DNA of 64,000 nucleotides, from assembly GCA_022820645.1 (NCBI GenBank), contig JAJEFD010000013.1:71308-135307 (forward strand), read 5' to 3'. Below the pieces are notes generated by a model. That model searched no databases, was not told where the DNA came from, and saw nothing but the letters and a program-made list of their open reading frames with translations. Position 1 is the stretch's first letter. Every line of letters starts with the position of its first letter. The DNA is from Dehalococcoidia bacterium. GTDB lineage: Bacteria > Chloroflexota > Dehalococcoidia > Lucifugimonadales > Australimonadaceae. Shown here in pieces: positions 2,033 to 53,193 of this stretch. A program made the translations under genes and the position numbers.

Positions 2033-2974
2033 CTACGGTTCCGGCGCGTAGCGCGAGAGGACGGGCTTCGCCATGATCTTCTCCGGCTTCCACGAGCTCT
2101 CCGCCCGGTTGAACCGCACGAGGCCGAGGAAACGCCCGTCCTCCGAGTACGCCCGCCGGGGTTCGAGATGCTTCGCGTACGGCGCGGAGCCCGGCAGATT
2201 GACCGGCTGGCCGTTCCGCAGGTGGCGCTCGCCCGCCGAGGGCACCAGGAGCGCGGGGGTCTCCTTGAGCGCGGCGTCCGGAGGCTCCAGCAGCCCTTCC
2301 CAGTCCTCCTCCGCTTCCAGCTGCTCTATCGTCAGCGCGTCGTCCAGCGAGAACGGACCGACGCGGGTGCGCGTGAGTGCGCTCAGGTGCGCGGGACAGC
2401 CGACGGCCTCGCCGAGGTCGTGCGCGAGGCTCCGCATGTAGAACCCCTTGCCGCAGTCGACCTCCACCACCGCGCGCGGCGGCTCCCACTCACGCAGCGT
2501 CAGCGAGTACACGACCACCTCGCGCTCCGGGCGCTCCACCTCCACGCCCGCGCGGGCGAGATCGTAGAGGCGCTGACCCTCGTGCTTCACGGCGGAGTAC
2601 ATCGGGGGCCGCTGCAGCACGACGCCGGTGAAACGCTGGAGGTGCTCCTCGATCTGCTCCCGCGAGAGCGATGCGTAGTCCCCCGTCGCCGTCGTTTCGC
2701 CTTCCGCGTCGTACGTGTCGGTCGCCGCGCCGAACGTGATCTCGCCGACGTACGTCTTGCCGCTGTCCACGAGGTAGTCCATGAACCGCGTGGCCTGCCC
2801 GAGGCAGACGGGCAGCACGCCCTCCGCTATCGGGTCGAGCGTGCCGGCATGTCCCACGCGCTTCACGCGGGTGATGCGCCGCACTGCGCGCACCACGTCC
2901 ATCGAGGTGATGGCCTTCGGCTTGTTGATGACGAACGCGCCGTCAGCCTCGACCCTTGTTGTCGTTCCGCTCAT
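2033..2974 (-). CDS. truB: tRNA pseudouridine(55) synthase TruB
   Basis: [59 protein letters not shown] contains the HxGTLDP catalytic motif. ATG 2974 overlaps the rbfA stop (ATGA). The longer track ORF to 3427 is an antisense-frame extension. Confidence 0.92.
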
Positions 2975-3318
2975 CCCTGTTCCTTGATGTCGTCCAGCAG
3001 GCTGAGCACGCGGTCGCCCTCTTCGATGGCGGTGTCGCGTACGAAGTGCAGCTCGGGCGTGCGTTTCAGGTTCAGCCGCTGGTGCAGTTCTCTCTTGATG
3101 TAGCCCGACGCCGACCGCAGACCCGCGAGCGCCTCGCGGGCGTCGTCCGGTGTCCCCGCGACCGTGACGGCTACCGTGGCGTGGCCGAGGTCGGCGCTTA
3201 CCTTCACGTGCGCGAGGGTCACGAGGCGCGACAGCCTCGGGTCCTTCAACCGGCCGGTGGTCAGCCTGCCGATCTCGCTCTGCAGCAGCCCTGCGATACG
3301 GTCCGTCCTGCGGGTCAT
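2971..3318 (-). CDS. rbfA: ribosome-binding factor A
   Basis: 115 aa, MTRRTDRIAGLLQSEIGRLTTGRLKDPRL...VKVSADLGHATVAV, typical RbfA. It sits in the infB-rbfA-truB context. Confidence 0.9.
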   Translation of the reverse strand: MTRRTDRIAGLLQSEIGRLTTGRLKDPRLSRLVTLAHVKVSADLGHATVAVTVAGTPDDAREALAGLRSASGYIKRELHQRLNLKRTPELHFVRDTAIEEGDRVLSLLDDIKEQG

Positions 3319-3348
3319 GGGTCGCTCGATTCCGCGCGCAGCCTGGGT

Positions 3349-5127
3349 TCAGGCGCGCTGCTGGCGGTGCGACTCGATGATGTCGCCTTCCTGGAAGTCG
3401 TTGAACCCTTCGAGTGAGACGCCGCACTCGTAGCCGGTCGCGACTTCGCGCACGTCGTCCTTGAACCGGCGCAGCCCGGCGATCGCGCCGTCGAAGACCG
3501 TCTCGCCGTCGCGGATGACCCGTCCTCGCGCGCCTCGCGTCAGTCTTCCGTCCGTCACGTAGCAGCCCGCGCTCTTCCGGTTGCGCCCGAGCGAGAACAC
3601 GGCGCGCACTTCCGCCGTGCCTTCGGTCACGTCCTGGATCGTCGGTTCCAGCAGGCCGTGCAGCGCCTTCTCCACGTCCTCCGTGAGGCGGTAGATGATG
3701 TCGTAGCGCCGTATCTGCACGTTGTCCTGATCGGCAAGGCGTTGCGCGCCCTGGTCCGGGCGGACGTTGAAGCCGATGACGATGGCGTCCGACGCAACCG
3801 CGAGCATCACGTCGCTCTCGGTGACGGCGCCCGTGCCGCTGTGGATGAGGCGTATCTGCGTCTCCGGGGTGCTCAACCGCTCCAGCGCCTGCCGGACGGC
3901 TGCGATGCTGCCCTGCACGTCCGTCTTGAGGATGAGCCGCAGCTCCTTCGTCTGGCCGGACGATATGCGCGCGCCCATCTCTTCCAGCGTCGCGCCACGC
4001 ACCCGGTTGAGGTCCTCACGCCGCAGCCGCTCCGCGACCGTCGCGCGCGCGGTCTTCTCGTCCGGCACCACGACCAGCCGGTCCCCCGCGCCGGGGAGTT
4101 CGCTGAGGCCCAGCACCTCGACCGGCATGGACGGCCCGGCATTGTGAGTGCGCTTCCCCTCAGCGTTCACGAGCGCCTTGACGCGCCCGCGCGTCGAGCC
4201 GACGACGATGTGATCGCCGACCCGCAGCGTACCGGTCTGCACGAGTATCCGCGCCAGCACGCCCCGGTTGCGGTCCAGCTCCGCCTCCACGACCACCCCG
4301 ACGCCGGGACGCTTCGGGTTCGCCTTCAGCTCCGCGACCTCGGCAACGAGCTCGATGCTCTCCAGCAGGTCGGGGATGCCGTCGCCTGCCTTCGCCGAGA
4401 CCTCGACGTCGATCACGTCGCCGCCCCACTTCTCGACCACGAACTCGTGCTCGGAGAGCTGCCGCCGTACCCGCTCGGGGTCGGCGTTGGGGCTGTCCAT
4501 CTTGTTGATGGCCACGATGATCGGCACTTCCGCCGCCTTGATGTGGTCGATCGCCTCGACGGTCTGCGGCATCACGCCGTCGTCTGCTGCGACGACGAGC
4601 ACAGCGATGTCCGTCACCTGCGCGCCGCGTGCGCGCATCGCCGTGAACGCCTCGTGACCGGGCGTGTCGATGAACGTGACGGGTGTGCCGTTGTGCACCA
4701 CCTGGTACGCCCCGATGTGCTGCGTGATGCCGCCCGCCTCCCTCGCGACGACGTTCGTGCGGCGGATGGCGTCGAGCAGGGTCGTCTTCCCGTGGTCGAC
4801 GTGACCCAGCACCGTTACGACGGCGGGCCGGGTTTCGAGGTCGGCGGACTCGTCCTCCGCCACGCCGCCGCCTGCGGCGCTGACGGAGTCCTCCACCTTC
4901 CGCGCGGCGTACCCGAACACCCGGGCCACGCCTGCTGCGGTATCGAAGTCGATGATCTGGTTGATGCTCGCGAACACTCCGCCGCGCATCAACTGCTTGA
5001 TGACCTGCACGGGTTCCACGCGCATCCGCTCCGCAAGCACCCCGACGGCGATCGCCTCGCCTATGGGCAGCGCCCGGAGTGTGACTCGACGGGTGGCGGT
5101 TGCCGACCTCTGTGGTTCTTCGACCAT
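3349..5127 (-). CDS. infB: translation initiation factor IF-2 (short N-terminus)
   Basis: GTPase motifs are present: [28 protein letters not shown]. The conserved C-terminal domains follow. The start is taken at MVEEPQRSA (ATG 5127); upstream track residues are Arg-rich and overlap ylxR. Confidence 0.95.
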
Positions 5128-7224: not shown

Positions 7225-7432
7225 GTCATTCCAGCACCGGCTGGAATCCAGGGGGCGCGGGCAGCGCACGTGGGCGAGGCGGAGCGTGGGGGAGGGAATG
7301 TTGTCATGCTGAGCGGAGCGCAGCGGAGTCGAAGCATCCTCGGAGTTGTCTGGTGTAGGGGCGTCCCTTGTGGGCGCCCTTCCCCCACCTCTCCCAAAGG
7401 GCGAGGTGGACGCGCTTGCGCGGCGGGTGAGA
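7225..7432 (+). repeat. composite REP cluster (types A, E, D, C in series)
   Basis: Type A variant gtcattccagcaccggctggaatccag at 7225-7251. Type E tgtcatgctgagcggagcgcagcggagtcgaagcatcctcgg at 7302-7343. Type D gtaggggcgtcccttgtgggcgccc at 7355-7379. Type C cccacctctcccaaagggcgaggtggacgcgcttgcgcggcgggtgagag at 7383-7432. Confidence 0.9.
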
Positions 7433-11052: not shown

Positions 11053-11277
11053 ATGCAGGAGATAGTCGATAGGCGGTTGAGCAATGCGAGAGAACTCCTG
11101 GGGCTTGCCAGTAAGGAACTGGATGCTCTTGATGAGGTCCTGCCCGATATGGATTGGATAAAGTCGATTGCGAAGGCGAGGATGGGCGCAAGATTCTGCG
11201 ATGAGGCTCTGAGGTCTGCTGAGACTCTTGCATTGAAGAACCGGGCGTTGATCAGACAATACTTGCGGATCGCATAA
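11053..11277 (+). CDS. hypothetical helical 74-aa protein in a low-GC islet
   Basis: The SD aaaggggagg precedes ATG 11053. Local G+C is visibly lower than the surroundings. No family recognised. Confidence 0.35.
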   Translation: MQEIVDRRLSNARELLGLASKELDALDEVLPDMDWIKSIAKARMGARFCDEALRSAETLALKNRALIRQYLRIA

Positions 11278-11330
11278 GCATCTTTTCGGTTCCGCCTCGA
11301 ACACGACAAGGAGAGGCAGGCCCGCAACCT

Positions 11331-11500
11331 CGTCGTTCCTGCCTTCGCAGGAACCTCGGTTGGCGTGTAGGGGCGTCCCTTGTGGGCGCCCTGTCTGACC
11401 CACCTCTCCCCGGGGGAGAGGTCGACGCGCTTGCGCGGCGGATGAGGGTTGGCAGCGGGGAGGGGGCTGTCATTCCGAGCGAAGCGCCGCGGGGTCCCCC
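11331..11500 (+). repeat. composite REP cluster (A variant, D, C, E-like)
   Basis: It includes gtcgttcctgccttcgcaggaacctcg, gtaggggcgtcccttgtgggcgccc (11367-11391), cccacctctccccgggggagaggtcgacgcgcttgcgcggcggatgagggt, and ctgtcattccgagcgaagcgccgcgggg. Confidence 0.85.
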
Positions 11501-11577
11501 GCTTTAGCGCGCGGAATCCTCTCGGGGATAGCCCGCTCATGGTGAGCCTGTCGAACCACAGATGACTGTAACTCCCG

Positions 11578-13776
11578 TCACCCGGTGCAAAACGGGAGAT
11601 CGAGGGCACCCAGCTCTAGTGTTCGAACATTTCGGAACGAGGCGGGGATGCATGTAGTAACGGAGAAGGGATTGGGGCCTAGCTCCAGGTTCTCCAAGTT
11701 GGTCAGCCGGCCTAGCTCGTAAGGGATCTCGCCGGTGAGCTGATTGCCGCCCAGCCTGAGCCACTTGAGCCCAGTCAGGTTCGCCAGGGCGGCTGGGATA
11801 GCACCGGTGAGCTGATTGTTGGACAGGAGGAGGAAGCCCAGGCCTGTCCGGTTCCCGAGTTCGACAGGGATTGCGCCGGTGAGCTGATTATCGGACAGGA
11901 GCAGGGACCGGAGTCTCGGCATGCTTCCGAATTCGGCAGGGATCCCTCCGGTGAGTAGATTGCCGGAAAGGTCCAGCCATCCCAGTTTCGGCATACTCGC
12001 CAGTTCGACGGGGATCCCGCCGGTGAGTTGGTTGACGGACAGTGTCAGCGAATCCAGGTTCGCGAGGCGCGCCAGCTCAGCGGGGATCTCGCCTGTGAGT
12101 TGATTCCCTGACAACTGCAGTGATTTCAGGTTGGACAGGTTCGCCAATTCGGTCGGGATCGCGCCCGTGAGCTTGCCGCCCAGGTGGAGTCCTTCCAGGT
12201 TTGACAGGTTGCCGAGTTCAGGCGGAATAGCGCCCGTGAGGCCATCGCTATAAAGCCTCAGTTCTGTGACGCCAGTCAGGTCTCCCAGTTCAGGCGGGAT
12301 CGGCCCTGTGAGGCGGAGATTGGCCAGGCTCAGCTGCGTCACGCGCTGGGGCGAGCCGCCGAGCGTGACACCGTCCCACGCTCCCAGGGGCACCTCTTCG
12401 AACCAGTTGAGTTGGTCCCCCGCCCCAAGAGCGTCCCGCGCCGACAGCAGTATTGCGCGGTCCCGTTCGAGAGCGGGGTTGGTTTCGTGGACGTTCATGT
12501 CGTCGCAGACGCCGAGACGCATCCCCCCTAGCTCCAGGGTAGGGATGTCGAGGTAGGAGGCAGGCAGGCAGGAGAAGGGGTTGGATCCCAGCGACAGTCC
12601 ATTGAGGTTCGGCAGGTCTCCCAGCGCGGGCGGAAGTGGATCGGTGAGTTGGTTGTGGTCTAGCCACAACTGGATCAGGTTCGTCAGTCTGCCGAGTTCA
12701 GACGGTACCGCGCCGGTCAGTTGGTTGTGAGAGAGGCGCAGGTACTGCAGAGATGTGATCTCCCCGAGTTCAGGAGGGATTTCGCCCGTGAGCATGTTTG
12801 CTCGTACGCTCAACCCGGTCAGTTTCCTCAGCCTTCCCAGTTCGGGAGGGATCTCGCCCGTGAGTCGATTGTGGACCAGATACAGGTTCTGCAATTCCTC
12901 CAGGTTCCCCAGTTCGGATGGGATATTGCCAGTCAGATCGTTGACCGCCAGCCGCAACGTCTCCAGGTTTGTCAGGCTTCCGAGCTCAGGCGGAATCTCG
13001 CCCGTGAGGTCGTTGTGCGTTAGTTCCAAGTGCTGCAGTTCCCTCAGACTCCCCAACTCAGATGGGATCCCGCCCGTGAGGTCATTGCCGGAAAGGTTGA
13101 GGTTCTCCAGCTCCTTCAGGTTTCCCAGCTCAGGTGGGATCGCACCCGTGAGGCCGACCCTATTGAACCCGTTGTCAGCCAGGTCCAGTGTCCGCAGTTT
13201 CTCCAGCATCCCCAACGCAGCCGGGACCGCTCCGGACAGTTCTCGGTTGGGCAACGAGAGCGCTATTACCCGTAGCGGGTCTCCGCCGACCGTCACCCCG
13301 TCCCACTCCTGTATCCGCACCGTGCCTTCCCAGTTGAGCGTCGCGGTCCCCGCCAGGGTGTCCCGCAGCAGCAGGAGCGTCGAGGCATCCTGCGTGAGGC
13401 CGGGCCCGGCCGTCAGCCTATAGGCCGGCGTCGGTGTGGGCGTGGGTGTCGGCGAGGGCGTAGGGGTCAGGCTTGGGGTCGGAGTGGACGTGGACGTGGG
13501 AGTGGGAGTCGGTGTGAGCGTAGGCGTGGGCGTCGGAACAGGCGTTGGAGTTGCGGTTGGCGTGGGTGTAGGGGTAGGCGTGGGAGTTGGAGTGCTCGTG
13601 GGTGTGGCCGTTGCCGTTGGGATGGCCGTGGCGGTGGGCGTCGGCGAAGCGCATGCGGCAGCATCACGCCCAGCAGGACGACCACCAGTATGGAAAGGAC
13701 TCGCATCGACACTCCGCCTACCTGTGTGCGACGCAACGGCAAGAGGCACCACGACTCGCAGTGCCGCCGCGCGCAC
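11578..13776 (-). CDS. leucine-rich repeat (plant-type LRR) protein with Pro/Thr-rich linker; N-terminus uncertain (possible frameshift)
   Basis: There are about 25 tandem 24-residue repeats LxxLxxLxLxxNxLTGxIPxELGx in two blocks. Each block is preceded by a cap like [19 protein letters not shown] / [19 protein letters not shown]. The track start at 13776 is a GTG. A much better lipoprotein signal peptide is in the -1 frame (see findings). Confidence 0.85.
13428..13650 (-). repeat. Pro/Thr-rich low-complexity coding repeat (linker of LRR protein)
   Basis: It encodes [74 protein letters not shown]. At nucleotide level it is (ggygtN)n on the plus strand. Confidence 0.9.
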
Positions 13777-19382: not shown

Positions 19383-20303
19383 ATGCGCTTGCGCGAAGAA
19401 GACATGCTCGCGCCGTTGAGGTCAGGTAACCTGCGCCGCTTCCTCTCCACCTATCGCTGGGAGGTTTGGTTCTTCCTCGGTGTGCCCGTGATCGTTGGAG
19501 CAGTCCGCCAGTTGGTCCGGTGGTTGGTGCACTTTGATAGCAGCACTTGGTATCACGGATCGGACCTAGCGATTGGTGCACTGGGGCTTGCTCTGCTGGC
19601 CGCTGCTTTCCCGCTCGTTCTCCGACGAGGGCGTCAACTCTTGGTTCTGTTATGGGGCTTTGAACTTGTTACGCAGGGCACGAGCATCGCTTTGAAAGGA
19701 TTTGACCTGACCAGGGGAGAACCACCCGCTGGGGTACAGCTGTTCACGATACACACCGTTGGTGATCTGCATTACTTTTCTACGGTCAGTGCTTGGGTCG
19801 GGGTTCTCGCTCTGGTCTGGTTTGCGAGACAGGCCTCGCGCATAAGCACTGCTCATGCATTCCTGTTTGTGGGTTTGTCTTTCGCTACTTCCAGTTTCAG
19901 TCTGCAGCCGTTCGTGTTTGAATCGTCATCAGGATATGTGGACTTATTCGCCGCGATCTATCTGATATCTGCAATAGCCGTGAACATCCTTGCCCTGTGG
20001 GCGATGGTACATCTTGAATCCAAGAGGATGGCTTTCCCTGTAACTGCTACGGTGGGATTGTTTGGAATGGCAATAGGGAAGTCCTTGTTTGGGGTATATG
20101 CCTTGTTCCCGGTACTCGCCGCATCTTACGGATACAGGCTTCTTGAGCAACTGTTTGAGGACTGGGGCGTGATCAGTATGGCGATGTTGGGGCACGCCCT
20201 GCAGTTCGGGTTGTACAACCTCCTCCCACTCCCGCTCATATACCTCGTGCGCGTACGCCGCCGCGCACCAGTCGTATCTGCTCCTGCGTACCGGGAGAGT
20301 TGA
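19383..20303 (+). CDS. hypothetical polytopic membrane protein, low-GC gene
   Basis: 306 aa with about 7-8 hydrophobic segments (WEVWFFLGVPVIVGA, AIGALGLALLAAAFPLVL, ...). G+C is visibly lower than in flanking genes. It starts 13 nt after the rarA stop. No family recognised. Confidence 0.55.
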   Translation: MRLREEDMLAPLRSGNLRRFLSTYRWEVWFFLGVPVIVGAVRQLVRWLVHFDSSTWYHGSDLAIGALGLALLAAAFPLVLRRGRQLLVLLWGFELVTQGTSIALKGFDLTRGEPPAGVQLFTIHTVGDLHYFSTVSAWVGVLALVWFARQASRISTAHAFLFVGLSFATSSFSLQPFVFESSSGYVDLFAAIYLISAIAVNILALWAMVHLESKRMAFPVTATVGLFGMAIGKSLFGVYALFPVLAASYGYRLLEQLFEDWGVISMAMLGHALQFGLYNLLPLPLIYLVRVRRRAPVVSAPAYRES

Positions 20304-22029: not shown

Positions 22030-22327
22030 GTCGCGCCTCCCCCGTTCGTGCTCGCATGCGGCTGCCACCGCGCGCGCAGTCTACTACGCCCCGCCTCAGG
22101 TGCAACGCCCATATCCTGTGCATCCTGCACATCCCTGTCGATTGTCGGATGTGTGACACGCGCCACTTGCGCGAATGTCCGACCGTGCCGCACGATGGTA
22201 GAGCGCGATAACAGAGCGCGCACTTGAACCCTTGCGGACAAGCCGCAGGAAGACCGCTGCCCCCTCAGCGAAGAGCACGAGGGGGCTTTCTGTGTTAACC
22301 GGGTATCCGGGTGGAGAAGGTGGACCC

Positions 22328-23905
22328 GTGGCAGAAGACCTCACAAGATACAGGAACGACCCCGTCGGCTTCGTGACGGACGTGCTCGGCGAGGCAGGGG
22401 CGCCGTACTCGAAGCAGGTCGAGATGCTCGAGGCGGTCGTGGAGCATCGGCGCGTCTCGGTCGTCGGAGCGAACGGCTCCGGCAAGGACTGGACCGCCGC
22501 ACGCGCCGTGCTCTGGTGGCTGGAGACACGTCCGGAGGCCACCGTCCTCGTCACGGGCCCGACCCAGCGGCAGGTCGAGGAGATCGTCTGGCAGCAGATG
22601 CGCCTGGCGCACGCAGCCGGGGAAGACCGCCTCAGCGGGAAGATGTTCACGTCGAAGTACCGCATCGACGACAAGCGTTTCGCCATCGGCTTCTCCACCA
22701 ACAAGGCCTGCAACATCCAGGGCTTCCACTCCCCGGAACTGCTCGTCATCGTCACGGAGGCGCACGCCATGCCCCAGGACCAGATGGACGCCATCAAGCG
22801 CCTGCACCCCAACCGGTTGCTGCTCGTGGGCAACGCCATGTCGCTCGACGGCGAGTTCTACGAGTCCCACCACTCGAAGCGCGCCCGCTATCACCGCATC
22901 CGCATCTCCGCCTACGACACGCCCAACTTCACCGGCGAGAACGGCGGCGTCCCCGGGATGATCACGCCCGACGACGTCGAGGAGCTCGCCCTCGACTGGT
23001 CGGAGGACCACCCCGCGTACGTCTCCGCCGTCCTCGCGCAGTTCCCGGACGCCCAGGAGGACTCGCTCGTCGTACGCGACGCCGTGGAAGCCGCCATGGA
23101 GCGCGGCGAGGCTCTGCTCGATTGTCATTCCGAGCGGAGCGCAGCAGAGCCGAGGAATCTCTCGGGTGCAGACCCCGCTGTGGACGAACGTTCTCCGAGA
23201 GATGTTTCGACTTCGCTCAACATGACAGCCCTGTCCGTCGACGACCCCGACGCGGGCATGCCCGTCTACGTGGGCGTCGACGTGGCGCGGTTCGGCTTCG
23301 ACAAGTCCGCCATCTGCGTGCGGCGCGGGCAGCGCGTGCTGAGCCTGCGCTCCTTCCAGGGGATGGACACGATGCGGCTGGTCCACGAGATCCTGCAGAC
23401 GGTGGAGCAGACGGGCGCAGAGGCCATCTTCGTGGATGAGGGCGGTATCGGCGGGGGCGTCGTGGACAGGCTGAAGGAGCTCGGGGCGCCCGTCTACGGC
23501 AAGCACTTCGGCGGGAAAGCGCCGCACCGCACGCGCTTCTACAACATGCGCTCCGAGTTCTTCTGGGAGTTGCGGCTGCTGCTCAACGACGGCCTCGTCG
23601 CGCTGCCGCGCGACGAGGAGCTCGCCGGACAGCTGGTCTCGCTGCGCTACGACGTATCGAGTTCCGGTCAGGTGCGGCTGCAGGGGAAGAAGGAGATGCG
23701 GAAGCGGGGCCTGCCGTCGCCCGACAAGGCGGACGCGCTCGCGCTTGCTTTCCTCGTGCCGCCGTCGCTCGGCATCTGGACGGGCACCGAGCCCCTCCTC
23801 GACGACGACCGCCGTTCGCCGCACTTCGGCCTCGGCTACCGGCCTCCGCCCGATGAGGACTCGCAGCCCAGCCCCAGCCTCGGGATATGGTTCGGACGAC
23901 CTTGA
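22328..23905 (+). CDS. phage terminase large subunit-like protein (orphan), carrying an in-frame repeat insertion
   Basis: ATPase motifs: VSVVGANGSGKDW (Walker A) and PELLVIVTEAH (Walker B). RNase H-fold nuclease motifs: VGVDVARFGFDKSAI, FVDEGGIGGGVVDRL, SPDKADALALAF. GTG 22328 after ggtggagaagg is my start guess; the track ATG is 22232. Confidence 0.8.
   Translation: MAEDLTRYRNDPVGFVTDVLGEAGAPYSKQVEMLEAVVEHRRVSVVGANGSGKDWTAARAVLWWLETRPEATVLVTGPTQRQVEEIVWQQMRLAHAAGEDRLSGKMFTSKYRIDDKRFAIGFSTNKACNIQGFHSPELLVIVTEAHAMPQDQMDAIKRLHPNRLLLVGNAMSLDGEFYESHHSKRARYHRIRISAYDTPNFTGENGGVPGMITPDDVEELALDWSEDHPAYVSAVLAQFPDAQEDSLVVRDAVEAAMERGEALLDCHSERSAAEPRNLSGADPAVDERSPRDVSTSLNMTALSVDDPDAGMPVYVGVDVARFGFDKSAICVRRGQRVLSLRSFQGMDTMRLVHEILQTVEQTGAEAIFVDEGGIGGGVVDRLKELGAPVYGKHFGGKAPHRTRFYNMRSEFFWELRLLLNDGLVALPRDEELAGQLVSLRYDVSSSGQVRLQGKKEMRKRGLPSPDKADALALAFLVPPSLGIWTGTEPLLDDDRRSPHFGLGYRPPPDEDSQPSPSLGIWFGRP
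23123..23227 (+). mobile_element. 105-nt MITE-like inverted-repeat element inserted in frame inside the terminase-like CDS
   Basis: Left arm tgtcattccgagcggagcgcagcagagccgaggaatctctcgg, ~30-nt core, right arm ccgagagatgtttcgacttcgctcaacatgaca. The architecture matches the intergenic copy at 24005-24119. It translates as CHSERSAAEPRNLSGADPAVDERSPRDVSTSLNMT. Confidence 0.8.
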
Positions 23906-29664: not shown

Positions 29665-29772
29665 GGCGGACCTCCGTCACGGGAGATGGGCGTAGGGAGC
29701 GAGCATACCAAAGATGCCGAACGGGGGAGGGCCCCACGCACCGCACCCCGCCGTGTGACCTGCCCGGTCACT

Positions 29773-29799
29773 CTGGATTCCCGCCGGTGCGGGAATGAC
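29773..29799 (-). repeat. type-A REP hairpin copy (inverted orientation)
   Basis: ctggattcccgccggtgcgggaatgac, preceded by gtgacctgcccggtcac. Confidence 0.9.
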
Positions 29800-29872
29800 G
29801 GGGGAGCGTGTCATTGACCGCCCTCCGAGCCCGTCCCCATAATGGCCGCGTCACCAGACAAGGGGGTGTCCC

Positions 29873-31015
29873 ATGATCGAATGGCTCGGCATCGAACATC
29901 TCTTCGAGCTTTCCGGGACTGAAGCGGTCTGGGCGTTCTTCACCCCGCTCATCGTCTTCGCCGTGTTCGCCGTGTTGCAGATCGTCCTGCCGGCGAGGCG
30001 GGTGCCCGGCTACGTCATCGACGAGGCGACCGGCCAACCCCGCAACTACCGGCTGAACGGTCTCCTCGTGTTCGTTATCGTGCTCATCGTGTGGGCCACG
30101 GAGGTCACCGGGATGCCGCGCGAGTGGTTCTACCGGGCGTCGGTCTACTCCGTGGCGGGCGGGACGGTCTTCACGCTCATCTTCGCGCTCGTGGCCGTGT
30201 TCGGCCAGCCGAAGGGCGACAGTGCGAAAGGCCCCCTCGCGGAGCTGTGGACCGGGCGGGTGCGGGAGATCTCGCTGTTCAAGGACCGTTTCGACATCAA
30301 GATGTGGTTCTACGTCGTGGGCGGGTCGATGCTGTCGCTCAACGCGCTGTCGGGGGCCGCGTACCACTACGACCGCTTCGGCGACAACGCCAACCCGGGC
30401 GTGTTCCTGTACGCCGCGTTCTTCACGTTCTACATCCTCGACTACTTCGTCTTCGAGCGCGTCCAGCTCTACACCTACGACCTGATCCACGAGCGGCTCG
30501 GCTTCATGCTGTTCTGGGGTGGCCTCGTAATCTACGGGTGGCTGTTCATCCTGCCGCTGTGGGGCATGGCCGCTCACCCTGACCCCGGGTTCTCCGCGCC
30601 GTGGACGTACGTGTGGCTCATCGGGACGCCTCTGCTCTTCCTGTTCGGATGGAGCATCTCGCGCGGGGCGAACATGCAGAAATACATGTTCAAGCGGTTC
30701 CCCGACCGCAAGTTCCTCGGCATCATCGAGCCGAAGTACATCGAGGTCGGCGAGCGCAAGATCCTGTACAGCGGTTACTGGGGCGTGGCCCGCCACTTCA
30801 ACTACATGGGCGAGGGGTTCGCCTCGCTCTCGATAGCCCTCGTGTTCGGCCACTTCGGCAATCCCTGGGCGTGGATCTACTTCGTTTTCATCGTCTCGCT
30901 GTTCACGTCGCGCCAGCGCGACGACGACAAGCACTGCGCCGAGAAGTACGGCGAGGAGAAGTGGGCGGAGTACAAGTCGCTGGTGAAGTACCGGATATTC
31001 CCAGGGGTGTACTAG
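29873..31015 (+). CDS. ERG4/ERG24-type sterol reductase family membrane protein
   Basis: Polytopic, 380 aa. It has LYSGYWGVARHFNYMGEGF and the C-terminal SRQRDDDKHCAEKYGEEKWAEYKSLVKYRIFPGVY signature. The SD aagggggtg lies upstream. Confidence 0.8.
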   Translation: MIEWLGIEHLFELSGTEAVWAFFTPLIVFAVFAVLQIVLPARRVPGYVIDEATGQPRNYRLNGLLVFVIVLIVWATEVTGMPREWFYRASVYSVAGGTVFTLIFALVAVFGQPKGDSAKGPLAELWTGRVREISLFKDRFDIKMWFYVVGGSMLSLNALSGAAYHYDRFGDNANPGVFLYAAFFTFYILDYFVFERVQLYTYDLIHERLGFMLFWGGLVIYGWLFILPLWGMAAHPDPGFSAPWTYVWLIGTPLLFLFGWSISRGANMQKYMFKRFPDRKFLGIIEPKYIEVGERKILYSGYWGVARHFNYMGEGFASLSIALVFGHFGNPWAWIYFVFIVSLFTSRQRDDDKHCAEKYGEEKWAEYKSLVKYRIFPGVY

Positions 31016-31154
31016 GGGACAGGGCACCCACGAGAGGTGTCCCTACACCAGACACCAACCCTCACCCGCCGCGCGAGCGCGTCGACCTCTCCCAGGGGGC
31101 GAGGTGGGGGGCTACCTCCGCGCCACACCCCACCGTGTGACCTCCCCGGTCACT

Positions 31155-31181
31155 CTGGATTCCAGCCGGTGCTGGAATGAC
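31155..31181 (-). repeat. type-A REP hairpin copy (inverted orientation)
   Basis: ctggattccagccggtgctggaatgac, preceded by gtgacctccccggtcac. Type D and C copies lie at about 31020-31110. Confidence 0.9.
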
Positions 31182-31199
31182 GAGGCTTGCGCCGCGCGG

Positions 31200-46920: not shown

Positions 46921-48078
46921 TCATTCCCAGTGGAAGCAGGTGGCGGGGTTGTCCCAGAAGAGGCGGCGCTTGTCGTCGTCGTTGAGCTGGTCCCAGCCGA
47001 GCACGACGTCAACAGAGTCGGGGAAGCGGGACTCGGCGTGCGGGAAGTCGGAGCCGAACATGAGGACGTGGTCGCCCATAAGTTCGGAGACCATCTTCAC
47101 CATGTCCGGGCCCTCGTGAAGGACGACAGCGGCGAAGAAGCGTCCGCCGGTCATGTACTCCTCGATGGTGCGCAGGCCGTCGGCGACGTAGCCCATGTAG
47201 TGCACCTGGTCTTCCATGCGCTTCATCCAGAACGGCAGCCAGCCGAAGCCCGATTCGAGGATGGCAAGGTTGAGGTTGGGGTACTTGTCGAGCAGCCCCG
47301 CGCCGATGAAGGCGGAGATCATGCGCATCGCGGCCCAGGGGTGGGAGGCGGTGCGTCCGATGAATGGGTTGTCCCAGAGATCGCGGTAGCCGGGATAGCC
47401 GGACGCGAAGCTGTGGTGGACGACGGTGAGTCCGGCGTCGTCGGCAGCGGCCCAGACGGGTTGGAGGTCCGGGTGGTCGACGGGGTAGTCGAGCGGCAGG
47501 TCCATGATGATGCCGCGCGCCCAGCGCGAGCCGCCCCACGTCTTGATCTCGGTGACGGCGCTCTCCACGTCGCGCGCGCTGGCGGTGATGAGCGAGGTGA
47601 GGCGGTCCGGATAGCGGGAGCAGACGTCGTCGAGGAAGCGGTGGAGCGCACCGATCATCGCGGCGTCGACGCTCGGGTCGTCGTGGCCGGTGAAGGAGCC
47701 GGGGACGAGGAGCTCGATGTCGACGCCTTCCTCATTCATCTCGCCGATGCGGGTCTCGATGTCCCAGTCCTCGGAGTAGCGCGAGGGGTACTTGCTGCCC
47801 ATGAAGTTCTGGAAGTGGCGCTCCTCCCGCTCGCGCGGCCCGGCCTCGCCGAGGTGGCGCGGCTTGCCGCCGCCCCAGCCGCCCGCGCTCCCGAAGCGGT
47901 ACCAGTGGTTGAACGGCGGGTCCAGCACCTGCCCCGCGCGACCGATCTTGACCTCGCGCAGGAACCGGGCGAGGTCCGGCTGCCGGGCCTGGGTCGCGGC
48001 ATCCATGTAGGGCGTCAGCGTCTCGACCGACGGCTGGAGGTGGGTATCGGCATCGAAGACCTTGAATCCGTTGCGCAT
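46921..48078 (-). CDS. amidohydrolase-2 family protein, tandem copy 2
   Basis: Near-identical N- and C-termini to copy 1 (MRNGFKVFDADTHLQPSVETLTPYMDAATQARQP...FHWE). ATG 48078 lies within track ORF 46921..48873. Confidence 0.85.
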   Translation of the reverse strand: MRNGFKVFDADTHLQPSVETLTPYMDAATQARQPDLARFLREVKIGRAGQVLDPPFNHWYRFGSAGGWGGGKPRHLGEAGPREREERHFQNFMGSKYPSRYSEDWDIETRIGEMNEEGVDIELLVPGSFTGHDDPSVDAAMIGALHRFLDDVCSRYPDRLTSLITASARDVESAVTEIKTWGGSRWARGIIMDLPLDYPVDHPDLQPVWAAADDAGLTVVHHSFASGYPGYRDLWDNPFIGRTASHPWAAMRMISAFIGAGLLDKYPNLNLAILESGFGWLPFWMKRMEDQVHYMGYVADGLRTIEEYMTGGRFFAAVVLHEGPDMVKMVSELMGDHVLMFGSDFPHAESRFPDSVDVVLGWDQLNDDDKRRLFWDNPATCFHWE

Positions 48079-48161
48079 GGCGGTTCCCTCCTGTGGTTGG
48101 GAATTTACACCCTCACCCGCCGCGCTGTCCGCGCGACGACCTCTCCCAGAGGGAGAGGGGA

Positions 48162-49823
48162 TCAGGCGTCGAGGCCGTAGGTGTCGCGGGCCTTGGCGGG
48201 GGTGAGGACGCCATCCTCGACGTCTGCGCGGGTGCGGGCGGGGTCGCGGTCGGCGGCGGGGAGGACGCCCCCGCCTCCGCCGGTCTCGATGCGGAAGACG
48301 TCGCCGGGTTCGAGGCCGACGTTGGAGACGATGCCGGGGTAGCGCTGCTCGCGCTCCTCGCCGGGGTGGACGACGACCCACGCGTTGCGGCCGTCGCCGC
48401 CGCCCTCGACGCCCGCGGCCTCGCGCTTCGACGCGCCGCCGGAGAGCCGGCTGGGAGCGCGGACGCGGTACTCGCGCACGTAGCCGGGGCCGCCGCGGTA
48501 CGCGCCGTCGCCGCCGGAGTCGGGGAGCACCTCGAAGCGGGTCATGTCGACGGGGAACTCGGACTCGATGACCTCGACGCTGGTGAACTTCGCGCCGTAA
48601 CTGGCGCGGGAGCCGACGCCGGAGAAGCCGTCGCCGCCCTCCCACGCGGGCGCTCCGGCGTACATCAACTCGTACTGGACGTACTGGCGCTTCGCGCCGG
48701 TGTAGCCGACGACGATGGAGCTCTGGGTGGCGATGTGGGCGAGGGCGGGCCTGCCGGATGCCTTGGCCATGACCGCGCCGATGACGCTCTCGGCGAGCGC
48801 GAGGGTCTTGGAGTAGAAGCCGACAGGGCCGGGGAACGTGGGATCGAGGAGGCTGCCGCGCCGGAAGCGGCACTCGACGGCCTCCGTCATGCCGTGGTTG
48901 AGGGGGATGTGGCGGTCGGTGAGGCGTATCGCCATGTTGCGGGCGAGTCCCTCGATGAACGGCGGGCGGAGGTTGATAGGCGCGGTCGCCTGGTCGCCGG
49001 TGCCGGTGAAGTCGAGGACGAGGCGCTGTCCCTCCTTGATGGAGGCGACGTGCATGCGTATCGGCTCACCGGTGCTGGGGTCGTCGACCATGGCCTCAAC
49101 CTCGCAGACGCCGTCGGGCCAGGCGTCGAGCTGCTCGCGGATGCGGTGGGCGGTGCGCTCGCCCGCCTGCTCGAACTGCTGCAGGAGCGCGGGCGCGCCG
49201 TACGTGCGGATGAGGTCGTGCAGGCGCGCCTCGCCGATGGTGTGGCAGACACCGGCCTTGGCCGTGAGGTCGCCGATCATCATCTCGGGCACGCGGCTGT
49301 TGGCGCGGACGAACGTCGCGGTGTCCTGCTCGAGACGGTAGTCGCGCATGTAGCGCACGGGCGGTACCTGGAGGCCCTCGCCGAAGAGGTCGCGTGCGGT
49401 CGCGTTGCGCGAGCCCGCGGCGACGCCCCCGATGTCGGGCGTGTGGCCGATGCTGGCGGCGAACGCGATGAGCCTGCCGTCCGCGAAGATGGGGGTCATC
49501 ACGACCATGTCGTTCGCGTGGGGGCAGCCGCTGTGGTACGGGTGGCTGGCGAGGTAGGCGTCGCCCTCGCGCATGCCGGCGGGGGAGTGGAAGTCGAAGA
49601 GCCCGTGGACGCAGGCGGGGAGGCCGCCCATGTGTCCGGGGTGAGAGCCGCGCGCGACGAGGCGTCCGGTAGCGTCGAGCAGTCCGCAGCTGAAGTCGTG
49701 GGACTCGCGGACGATGGTGGAGAAGCCGGTGCGGAAGACGGCGTTCTCCATCTCGCGGACGATGCCGTCGAGGCGTGCGCTCATCACCTCGAAGGTGATG
49801 ACGTCGAGCGGGGGGCTGGTCAT
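48162..49823 (-). CDS. hydantoinase B / oxoprolinase family protein
   Basis: MTSPPLDVITFEVMSARLDGIVREMENAVFRTGFSTIVRESHDFSCGLLDATGRLVA, a typical HyuB N-terminus, 553 aa. Confidence 0.88.
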   Translation of the reverse strand: MTSPPLDVITFEVMSARLDGIVREMENAVFRTGFSTIVRESHDFSCGLLDATGRLVARGSHPGHMGGLPACVHGLFDFHSPAGMREGDAYLASHPYHSGCPHANDMVVMTPIFADGRLIAFAASIGHTPDIGGVAAGSRNATARDLFGEGLQVPPVRYMRDYRLEQDTATFVRANSRVPEMMIGDLTAKAGVCHTIGEARLHDLIRTYGAPALLQQFEQAGERTAHRIREQLDAWPDGVCEVEAMVDDPSTGEPIRMHVASIKEGQRLVLDFTGTGDQATAPINLRPPFIEGLARNMAIRLTDRHIPLNHGMTEAVECRFRRGSLLDPTFPGPVGFYSKTLALAESVIGAVMAKASGRPALAHIATQSSIVVGYTGAKRQYVQYELMYAGAPAWEGGDGFSGVGSRASYGAKFTSVEVIESEFPVDMTRFEVLPDSGGDGAYRGGPGYVREYRVRAPSRLSGGASKREAAGVEGGGDGRNAWVVVHPGEEREQRYPGIVSNVGLEPGDVFRIETGGGGGVLPAADRDPARTRADVEDGVLTPAKARDTYGLDA

Positions 49824-49900: not shown

Positions 49901-51052
49901 ATGAAAGAAGTTACGCTTTACACCGACGGCGCCTGCCAAGGTAACCCTGGCCCAGGAGGGTATGGGGTCGTCCTAGCCTACGGACCTCATCGGAGGGAAC
50001 TCTCGGGCGGGTACCGAAAGACGACGAACAATCGCATGGAGCTCACGGCCGCCATCAAGGGGCTAGAGGCTCTGAAGGAACAGTGCGAGGTCCAACTGCA
50101 CAGCGACTCCAAGTACGTCGTCGACGGTTACTCGAACGGGTGGGCGGCAAGATGGCGTGCAAACGAATGGAGGCTCAGCAACAATGAGTTGGCTGCCAAC
50201 TCCGACCTGTGGAGCAGATTACTCGACCTCTGTGAGTCCCACGATGTGACACTCCACTGGGTGCAAGGGCATTCAGGCAACCCGGATAACGAACGGTGCG
50301 ACCAGTTGGCGACAGGGGCCGCTACCCAACCCAATCTGCCTCCTGACGAACCATATGAAGGCGCCATGGGAGAAGAGCTTGCACCTAGGGCAACTACTCT
50401 TGTCAACCACAGCAGTCAGTCCACCGCTGCACACAACGTGAGGGACAGCTTGCTCTCAGCAGGTGTCGGCTTGAAAAGGCAAACCATATTCCGTGCTGTA
50501 GAGGAGAAAGATACCAAATTCGCCCCTACCCTCCTTGAACTGATGAAGTCCGAAGGAGACCCTGGCATCAAGAGCAGGTGTGCGTGGGCACTAGGCAGGC
50601 TGAATTACCGGGAAGCAGAGCCAAGCCTCATCATCGCGCTCAAAGATTCTTCGGTGGAAGTACGAAAATGGTCGGCTTGGGCACTAGGGGAGATAGGCAG
50701 TGCCAGAACAGAGGCGCATCTCAGGGGCGCCTTAGATCGCGAGGAGGTTGAGGCTGTCCGCAGCTCTATCGGAGGAGCGCTCAAGAAGCTCAACTTCGAG
50801 CCGACTCGCGTCCACGTCAGCCAACTCACTAAGGCGCTGCAACCACCCAAGACTACCGACTCCACTCTGTCGATCCTCATAGATAAACTGGAACAACTTG
50901 ATTCGATTGCAGACGCTGACGAAGTCATCAGACTCCGGACAGCAATGAAGGAACATGACCCCAGCTTCTTCAAGACATACATGGACTGGGTGAAGAGAAA
51001 GCCTGCAATTGCAGCCGCGCTCAAAGACGACAGACAAGTCTTCCACACCTGA
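49901..51052 (+). CDS. rnhA: ribonuclease HI fused to a C-terminal HEAT (PBS-lyase-type) repeat domain
   Basis: The N-terminal 145 aa align by eye with E. coli RNase HI, with DEDD present ([29 protein letters not shown]). The C-terminal ~235 aa hold repeats such as [53 protein letters not shown]+C is visibly lower. Confidence 0.85.
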
Positions 51053-51284: not shown

Positions 51285-51361
51285 GGCGCATTCGTCTAGC
51301 GGCCCAGGACACCGCCCTCTCAAGGCGGAGATCACGGGTTCGAATCCCGTATGCGCCACCA
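51285..51361 (+). tRNA. tRNA-Glu (anticodon CTC), CCA encoded
   Basis: Hand-folded. Acceptor GGCGCAT/ATGCGCC, anticodon stem CCGCC/GGCGG with loop CT-CTC-AA, and T-arm ACGGG-TTCGAAT-CCCGT. Confidence 0.9.
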
Positions 51362-53025: not shown

Positions 53026-53159
53026 CCCTAGCCGTTGACGTGGCGCGCGAGGAATGACCACACGAGGGCGATGGGAGAAGGTTTGGGCACCCACAAGGGA
53101 TGCCCCTACATCAGGCGCCACCCCGCACCACACCCCACCGTGTGACCTGCCCGGTCACT

Positions 53160-53186
53160 CTGGATTCCAGCTGGTGCTGGAATGAC
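53160..53186 (-). repeat. type-A REP hairpin copy (inverted orientation)
   Basis: ctggattccagctggtgctggaatgac, preceded by gtgacctgcccggtcac. Confidence 0.9.
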
Positions 53187-53193
53187 GACAACC

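Follow-up and report, generated by a model that had tools for sequence, protein, structure and literature searches.

The 64-kb stretch of Dehalococcoidia contig JAJEFD010000013.1 analysed here (the window) contains an intact open reading frame (ORF) for an ERG4/ERG24-type reductase of 380 aa with an ATG start. We read its product as an NADPH-dependent sterol C=C reductase that belongs to a cyclase-free, non-canonical sterol-tailoring set, a reading that we hold with moderate confidence. The gene lies as follows:

29873..31015, + strand: reductase coding sequence; the product is a polytopic ERG4/ERG24-family membrane protein, putatively an NADPH-dependent reductase of sterol C=C bonds

The GC content at third codon positions of this gene is 0.93, which is typical for the genuine genes of the window (about 68% GC). 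Its N-terminus, MIEWLG, is kept across an alignment of 64 homologues, and the start codon is therefore taken to be correct; homologues are 379–381 aa long. The gene is monocistronic, with flanking genes on the opposite strand, and it has no paralogue elsewhere in the window.

The first-pass annotation of this DNA had placed the protein in the ERG4/ERG24 family and quoted C-terminal sequences that match the translation of 29873..31015 exactly. The profile search that it called for bears the assignment out: PF01222 (ERG4_ERG24) matches across the full protein (E = 3.2e-37) and is covered from position 66 to the last of its 432 positions, and the score of 128.8 bits is far above the cutoff of 27. 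DUF1295 (PF06966), which had been named as the competing assignment, gives a secondary, overlapping match to residues 209-369 with 26.5 bits against a cutoff of 20.4. No NCBIfam model matches the reductase, and the NCBI annotation of the proteins of its clade reads only 'DUF1295 domain-containing'. Its best relative of solved structure is MaSR1, a Methylotuvimicrobium alcaliphilum delta-14 sterol reductase (4quv; phmmer against the PDB, E = 2e-36), and the same structure is the sole significant PDB fold match (TM 0.75, E = 1e-16, 377 columns, 29% identity) of an AlphaFold2 model of the reductase (pLDDT 76, pTM 0.80). The DUF1295/SRD5A/ICMT proteins had also been described as unrelated to ERG4/ERG24, a view that must be given up, since SRD5A2 superimposes on the core of MaSR1 and resembles ICMT (PMC7591894).

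In MaSR1, Y241 and D363 (ScERG24 Y257 and D374) are the predicted catalytic pair (PMC12489058), while N359 and R395 (LBR N547 and R583) bind NADPH, and mutating them abolishes cofactor binding and cholesterol synthesis (PMC4951196). When the reductase is aligned to MaSR1, Y187 falls at Y241, N310 at N359 and R347 at R395; all three are invariant in the clade, with Y187 found in 21 of the 21 members sampled, and the C-terminal NADPH motif is present. The key block reads W303-G-V-A-R307-H308-F-N310-Y311-M-G-E314 and is followed by R347, D351, C355, K358-Y359-G360, W364 and Y367. Further pocket residues that do not vary within the clade are R264, N267, K270, W303, R307, H308, Y311, D351, C355, K358, Y359, W364 and Y367, and the trio Y187/D190/H206 corresponds to MaSR1 Y241/D244/H260. 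Mean column identity over the 64 homologues is 85%, and dN/dS against close relatives is 0.05-0.14. Because the pocket, the tyrosine and an acid are kept under such low dN/dS, the reductase looks, as judged from its sequence, catalytically competent and strongly constrained.

The position of MaSR1 D363 is occupied by E314, a glutamate that is invariant in the clade. This replacement of the catalytic Asp could be taken to indicate a non-catalytic relic, or a sterol-binding or sterol-sensing protein without reductase activity. We consider such a role highly improbable, as Glu is the commonest residue at the acid position (59 of 70 family representatives), the NADPH-pocket residues and the catalytic Tyr are all clade-invariant, and the dN/dS values fit a maintained active site.

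We scanned one genome per species, which gave 267 reductase loci in species-representative genomes; the best 80 of these were examined with 10 kb on each side (labels such as L001 denote homologue loci, and labels such as P0121 denote family protein representatives). Nearly all of these 80 loci come from metagenome-assembled genomes (MAGs) named 'Dehalococcoidia / SAR202 cluster / Chloroflexota', many of them from sponge-holobiont projects. Hundreds of entries in the protein database are 74-98% identical to the reductase, and clustering at 50% reduces the whole clade to one full-length representative, P0121, in a family that comprises only 1316 clusters with E <= 1e-3. The reductase is near-universal within this sponge-associated Dehalococcoidia clade ('SAR202'/UBA2963-like). 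The earlier description of bacterial members as sporadic therefore does not fit the clade, and enrichment of TM7SF2/ERG24 (KEGG K00222) in sponge MAGs, where the gene is 'scattered' or 'in doublets' with an omega of 0.13, has been published (Kelly et al. 2022, PMC9531527). The suggestion of a host-associated organism fared better: the relatives are sponge-holobiont Dehalococcoidia MAGs, and the leucine-rich repeat (LRR) protein of the window that had been cited for it is real.

SAR202 bin16 from Aplysina aerophoba (L012) carries a syntenic reductase that is 90% identical, and it is listed under GTDB order UBA2963, genus Bin16, in the table of Kelly et al. (PMC9531527). The locus on OZ220673.1 (L001) is syntenic with the window and its reductase is 98% identical, with a dS of 0.24; it thus belongs to a related organism and not to the same one. 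Six loci (L059, L067, L071, L075, L077 and L080) contain tandem reductase duplicates, the pairs being about 65-71% identical, and contig DAOUJO010000005.1 carries two copies (L002 and L011) that are 88% identical and about 19 kb apart. All of these duplicates keep the catalytic set, the upstream L067 copy having Tyr at the position of H206, and the paralogues may differ in bond specificity.

A crude neighbour-joining tree of 93 sequences, in which MaSR1 and the Capsaspora 'sterol C-14 reductase' (P0261) represent the C-14 group, places the reductase clade with the short bacterial forms P0125 (378 aa), P0130 (from a Gammaproteobacteria MAG) and P0145 (from a Treponema MAG). The clade has the signature Y-D-H-E at positions 187/190/206/314, and the two C-14 representatives form a separate Y-D-x-D clade. 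By score, the closest large relative is a group with the signature F-E-A/R-E from choanoflagellates, chytrids, oomycetes, dinoflagellates, brown algae and metagenomes (including P0138, P0141, P0156, P0167 and P0179), in which Phe replaces the predicted catalytic Tyr. Its annotation is generic or automatic, and attempts to name it through cluster members and a homology search with the Monosiga member returned only names of that kind, with no clue to regiochemistry.

Since the clade lies outside the C-14 group and its closest large relatives carry no functional annotation, regiochemistry cannot be read from the phylogeny. The match of Y187/D190/H206 to MaSR1 leads us to favour slightly, on residue identity, the reduction of a delta-14- or delta-7-type bond in the ring system, and the main alternative is a side-chain delta-24(28) or delta-24(25) bond made or used by the sterol methyltransferase (SMT) described below. 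Two likenesses serve as leads and not as tests: the C-terminus (RDDD..C..KYG…VKYRIFPGVY) presumably resembles that of plant DWF5-type delta-7 reductases, and we take the Y/D/H pocket to be closer to DHCR7 and the C-14 reductases than to ERG4. A bacterial 8,14-sterol reductase described in a 2026 paper was also considered; it has an NTF2 fold and is unrelated to the reductase.

The first-pass annotation was right that the window holds no cyclase, demethylase or sterol methyltransferase: no cyclase, P450, SMT or squalene synthase was found within its 64 kb. The impression of an isolated reductase without sterol genes is nevertheless misleading. In 8 of the 80 loci, spread over four lineages (L020/L021; L036; L062; L059/L067/L077/L080), a recurring gene set lies within 10 kb of the reductase orthologue. 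It consists of an MFS (DHA2-type) transporter, a KshA_C-type Rieske oxygenase, an 826-aa MMPL/RND protein with a sterol-sensing domain, a 345-aa SMT and a GPP34-P450 fusion of about 680 aa. The SMT, in which a Sterol_MT_C domain was identified along with the motifs FGWSESLHF, VVDVGCGIGGP and ESTCHAP, is itself within 10 kb of the reductase in 7 of the 80 loci, the SMT-less window not among them. With orthologues 72-82% identical to the L020 copy, the SMT, the P450 and the KshA-like Rieske gene are found within 10 kb, and in both L020 and L021 a CYP51-clan P450 lies next to the reductase in divergent orientation. The GPP34-P450 fusion occupies 11069-13102 (-) in L083, 7702-9741 (-) in L020, 3888-5969 (+) in L062 and 2344-4371 (-) in L067.

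A link to the lineage of the window comes from the sister chromosome OZ220673.1 (2,917,805 bp), which bears both the L001 reductase and, about 583 kb away, an SMT homologue (P0408, locus L083). The order of genes in L083 is FAD oxidase, LppX/LprAFG lipoprotein, MFS transporter, KshA-like Rieske protein, RND protein with the sterol-sensing domain and SMT, followed by the GPP34-P450 on the opposite strand. Reductase and SMT share the same chromosome-scale contig in at least 8 cases, the sister genome included, and so the reductase of the window is best seen as a dispersed member of the set. A related arrangement surrounds the nearest outgroup, P0130, in another phylum, where a Gammaproteobacteria MAG contig (ERZ18545484, L081 3485-10133) carries on one strand a sulfotransferase, two SDR proteins, an SRPBCC (Polyketide_cyc2) protein, a third SDR protein, the reductase P0130 and a KshA-type Rieske protein. 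This last gene, directly 3' of P0130, is 56-60% identical to the SAR202 Rieske proteins; the best solved relatives of the KshA-type Rieske protein are 3-ketosteroid 9-alpha-hydroxylases. We regard this operon as a candidate route to modified or sulfated sterols.

The identity of these partners bears on the possibility that the protein serves as canonical C-14 reductase in a bacterium able to make sterols de novo by a complete pathway, the genes for squalene epoxidase and oxidosqualene cyclase, for a true CYP51 and for SdmAB lying elsewhere in the genome. This possibility draws on the fact that the best solved relative is a delta-14 reductase, on the Y/D/H pocket signature common to MaSR1, and on the CYP51-clan P450 next to the reductase in L020 and L021. 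Classical sponge-symbiont clusters of SMT, SMO-OSC, CYP51, ERG24 and sdmAB, some from Dehalococcoidia, have also been described (Brown et al. 2023, PMC10070321; Kelly et al., PMC9531527), though their arrangement differs from that of the set found here. The partner P450, whose best PDB matches are CYP51s at about 76 bits (Methylococcus CYP51), has neither the CYP51 GQHTS motif nor the helix-I acid-alcohol pair. Both other partners fall far below the NCBIfam equivalog models: the Rieske protein scores 28-33 bits against SdmA (cutoff 600) and the RND protein 27 bits against BstA (cutoff 1400). Of the 564 large ORFs in the loci, which together make up about 1.7 Mb, none was cyclase-like (at least 3 QW motifs), the reductase clade branches apart from MaSR1 and the Capsaspora protein, and the Dehalococcoidia MAG with a cyclase in the table of Kelly et al. 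belongs to order Bin125 and not to UBA2963 (PMC9531527). On balance we regard a canonical C-14 reductase as unlikely, if a serious candidate.

The substrate might instead be a non-sterol lipid (a hopanoid, carotenoid, polyprenol or other isoprenoid) or an alicyclic compound derived from dissolved organic matter, with no relation to the SMT cluster. SAR202 bacteria have been proposed as degraders of alicyclic, sterol- or hopanoid-like dissolved organic matter (PMC5395668). The gene stands alone in most loci, its NCBI name is only 'DUF1295 domain-containing', and the RND partner resembles the hopanoid transporter HpnN (100 bits, below the cutoff of that model). Set against this are the recurrent linkage, in 4 lineages, to a methyltransferase with the Sterol_MT_C domain and to a transporter with a sterol-sensing domain, the conservation of the KshA-type partner across phyla, and the enrichment of the gene in sterol-rich sponge hosts. 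To our knowledge, moreover, all characterised members of PF01222 reduce sterols. A non-sterol role therefore seems to us quite improbable, and we infer that the substrate is a sterol.

With no cyclase accompanying the set, and with a P450, a Rieske protein and an RND protein that are not CYP51, SdmA and BstA, the set most likely tailors sterols that the bacterium has not cyclised itself and that are taken from the host or the consortium. The earlier suggestion that the reductase acts on exogenous sterols is compatible with this evidence, and it is probable that the sponge symbionts modify existing sterols and do not build them de novo. By analogy with the family, NADPH would enter from the cytoplasmic side into a pocket of the C-terminal helices (R264, N267, K270, W303, R307, H308, N310, Y311, R347, D351, K358 and Y359) and the sterol would enter laterally from the membrane, to be reduced by hydride transfer from NADPH with protonation involving Tyr187 and Glu314. 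The comparative context suggests that the reductase would act as a dispersed member of a set comprising the SMT, the RND protein with the sterol-sensing domain (HAE3/HpnN-like), the exporter-type MFS transporter, the LppX/LprAFG-like lipoprotein, the KshA-type Rieske protein and the GPP34-P450. More tentatively, these genes, with one to three reductases, may form a sponge-symbiont-specific, cyclase-free module by which extracellular symbionts import sterols of the host, subject them to alkylation, oxidation and saturation, and export them again.

Several points weigh against a sterol-tailoring reductase. There is no sterol-related neighbour in the window or in 72 of the 80 loci, so that the functional link rests on a minority of loci and on co-occurrence on the same chromosome. 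The search for cyclases covered the loci, and a squalene epoxidase or cyclase may lie elsewhere in the genomes; ERG24-CYP51-LSS clusters do occur in some Dehalococcoidia of order Bin125 (Kelly et al., PMC9531527). The catalytic acid is Glu instead of Asp, which keeps the acid on a longer side chain. The clade does not group with the proven delta-14 reductases in the crude tree, and its closest large relative is an uncharacterised protist and metagenome subfamily without the catalytic Tyr.

The GPP34-P450 fusion deserves separate comment. Such fusions have been reported as exclusive to sponge symbionts and present in 80% of symbiotic Dehalococcoidia, and they were read as modulators of phagocytosis in a paper that mentions neither sterols nor the neighbouring genes described here (PMC11706023). 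Because the fusion adjoins the SMT and the sterol-sensing RND gene, and because its P450 domain has no acid-alcohol pair, its context is suggestive of an enzyme that acts on sterols or lipids by unusual chemistry. The enrichment of the reductase in sponge symbionts is already published; its link to a non-canonical sterol gene set that includes the GPP34-P450 may be new.

Sponge sterols, above all 24-isopropylcholesterol, underpin the oldest claimed animal biomarkers, and the bacterial contribution to them is debated. Sponge-associated Dehalococcoidia, which are abundant, keep a competent-looking reductase under strong selection, often in several copies, together with an SMT and a sterol-sensing transporter and apparently without a cyclase. 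If they do remodel host sterols, the sterol inventories of sponges would be products of the holobiont, and the GPP34-P450, thought to be a factor for evading phagocytosis, may be a lipid enzyme. If the cyclase-free module exists as proposed, symbionts could add to the unusual sterols of sponges, including 24-alkylated biomarker precursors, without de novo synthesis; three observations published separately to date, namely the enrichment of ERG24 and SMT, the alkylation of C-24 by bacteria and the GPP34-P450 found only in symbionts, would then reflect a single system of host interaction that centres on sterols. The clade also offers a compact bacterial MaSR1-like scaffold that could aid structural work on the disease-mutated proteins DHCR7 and LBR.

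The rest of the window is ordinary chromosome, with genes for IF-2, NusA, GluRS, PurT, GlpX, Rieske dioxygenases, many amidohydrolases and SDR proteins, TctA, PrpD and the LRR protein. Only relatives at least 88% identical have the same neighbours around the reductase; across diverged loci none of these genes recurs. We considered the kynurenine-formamidase-like cyclase, TctA, PrpD, SDR, amidohydrolase and PfkB genes as possible partners and rejected them, since their synteny is confined to those close relatives. The remaining features mapped around the reductase, and further copies of the repeat that flanks it, are the following:

29814..29843, + strand: sigma-70-like promoter match, TTGACC-18 nt-CATAAT (consensus match only)
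29740..29806, + strand: dispersed double-hairpin repeat, upstream copy (REP/MITE-like, about 65 bp)
31122..31188, + strand: dispersed double-hairpin repeat, downstream copy, in the same orientation as the upstream copy and in the convergent intergenic region
53127-53193, + strand: dispersed double-hairpin repeat, third copy
near 7225, - strand: dispersed double-hairpin repeat, weaker copy

The promoter match lies about 30 nt upstream of the reductase start, within the 208-bp divergent intergenic region; one such site was found upstream of the gene against 0.3 expected in shuffles. No canonical intrinsic terminator was found downstream, in the convergent intergenic region. The repeat of about 65 bp, which looks REP/MITE-like, is made of two hairpins, GTGACC…GGTCAC and ATTCCnGC-CGGT-GCnGGAAT, with folding z-scores of -2 to -3 and a compensatory C:G to A:T change among copies in the second stem. 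Direct copies on both sides of the reductase occur in this genome only; in the relatives L002, L007 and L012 copies lie at other places, and there are none at the reductase locus of L001. The idea that the direct repeats mark the ends of a mobile cassette was rejected, since the element is dispersed (with a third and a fourth copy in the window), lies elsewhere in relatives and is absent from the locus of the 98% identical relative.

Some other genes were noted in passing. The LRR protein (11578-13776, - strand) has 732 aa, consists almost wholly of leucine-rich repeats (LRR_1, LRR_4 and LRR_8, in many copies) and is of the eukaryote-like kind for which sponge symbionts are enriched; the GC content of the surrounding stretch is lower, at about 0.64. 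A 383-aa fusion of an RNase H domain to HEAT/PBS-lyase repeats (49901-51052, + strand) lies where the GC content of the window is lowest (0.614 at 50-52 kb) and adjoins tRNA-Glu (51285-51361); this region may be an integration hotspot or foreign DNA. Three ORFs of 306, 557 and 650 aa (19383-20303, +; 22232-23905, +; 46921-48873, -) have no Pfam match, and the second of them has coding-like GC3 and is 70-94% identical in close relatives. Outside the window, in L049 (14787-18630) and about 9 other loci, a class I S-adenosylmethionine-dependent methyltransferase and an adenylation-domain protein of about 1010 aa lie 4.6-5.6 kb downstream of the reductase and may represent a natural-product gene pair.

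Among known systems, the closest is MaSR1 (PDB 4QUV), also bacterial, which has in common with the reductase the fold, the NADPH pocket, the catalytic Tyr and the equivalents of D244 and H260. It differs in length (427 aa against 380 aa, the reductase being about 45 residues shorter at the N-terminus), in two residues (Asp363 is replaced by Glu314 and R398 by Asp350) and in its lineage in the tree. The host of MaSR1 is a sterol-producing methanotroph with a true CYP51. The eukaryotic C-14 reductases ERG24, TM7SF2 and LBR, the C-7 reductases DHCR7 and DWF5 and the C-24(28) reductase ERG4 belong to the same Pfam family as the reductase and carry the same C-terminal block, GxWGxARHxNYxG[DE] followed by R..RD…C..KYG..W..Y. 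An NADPH-dependent mechanism is common to this family. The DUF1295/SRD5A/ICMT superfamily shares the core fold and the cofactor site (PMC7591894) but has 7 helices against about 10, and the ERG4_ERG24 match of the reductase is about 100 bits stronger and covers the whole protein.

The ERG24 genes of sponge MAGs (Kelly et al. 2022, PMC9531527; Brown et al. 2023, PMC10070321) resemble the reductase in habitat, KEGG orthologue and scattered or doublet occurrence, and they are similar to it in length (389 codons in the alignment of Kelly et al. against 380 aa) and in the degree of purifying selection (omega 0.13 against dN/dS 0.05-0.14). Published work has focused on the copy within ERG24-CYP51-(SMO-)OSC clusters, which was read as evidence of de novo synthesis (PMC9531527, PMC10070321), whereas in the 80 loci the reductase clade never stands beside a cyclase or a true CYP51 and, where it is clustered, accompanies the SMT, the sterol-sensing RND protein, the KshA-like Rieske protein and the GPP34-P450. 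The canonical bacterial sterol cluster (OSC, CYP51, SdmAB and BstABC) differs likewise, in that no cyclase, SdmA or BstA equivalog was found near the reductase or its partner set. Homologues in Legionella drancourtii, Coxiella and the chlamydiae also come from eukaryote-associated bacteria without reported sterol synthesis and are presumed to act on host sterols (PMC2667531, PMC9666466). The genes of these intracellular bacteria have, however, been interpreted as recent acquisitions from eukaryotes, whereas the SAR202 clade, with its gammaproteobacterial, Treponema and unassigned relatives, is a deep bacterial lineage of short forms.

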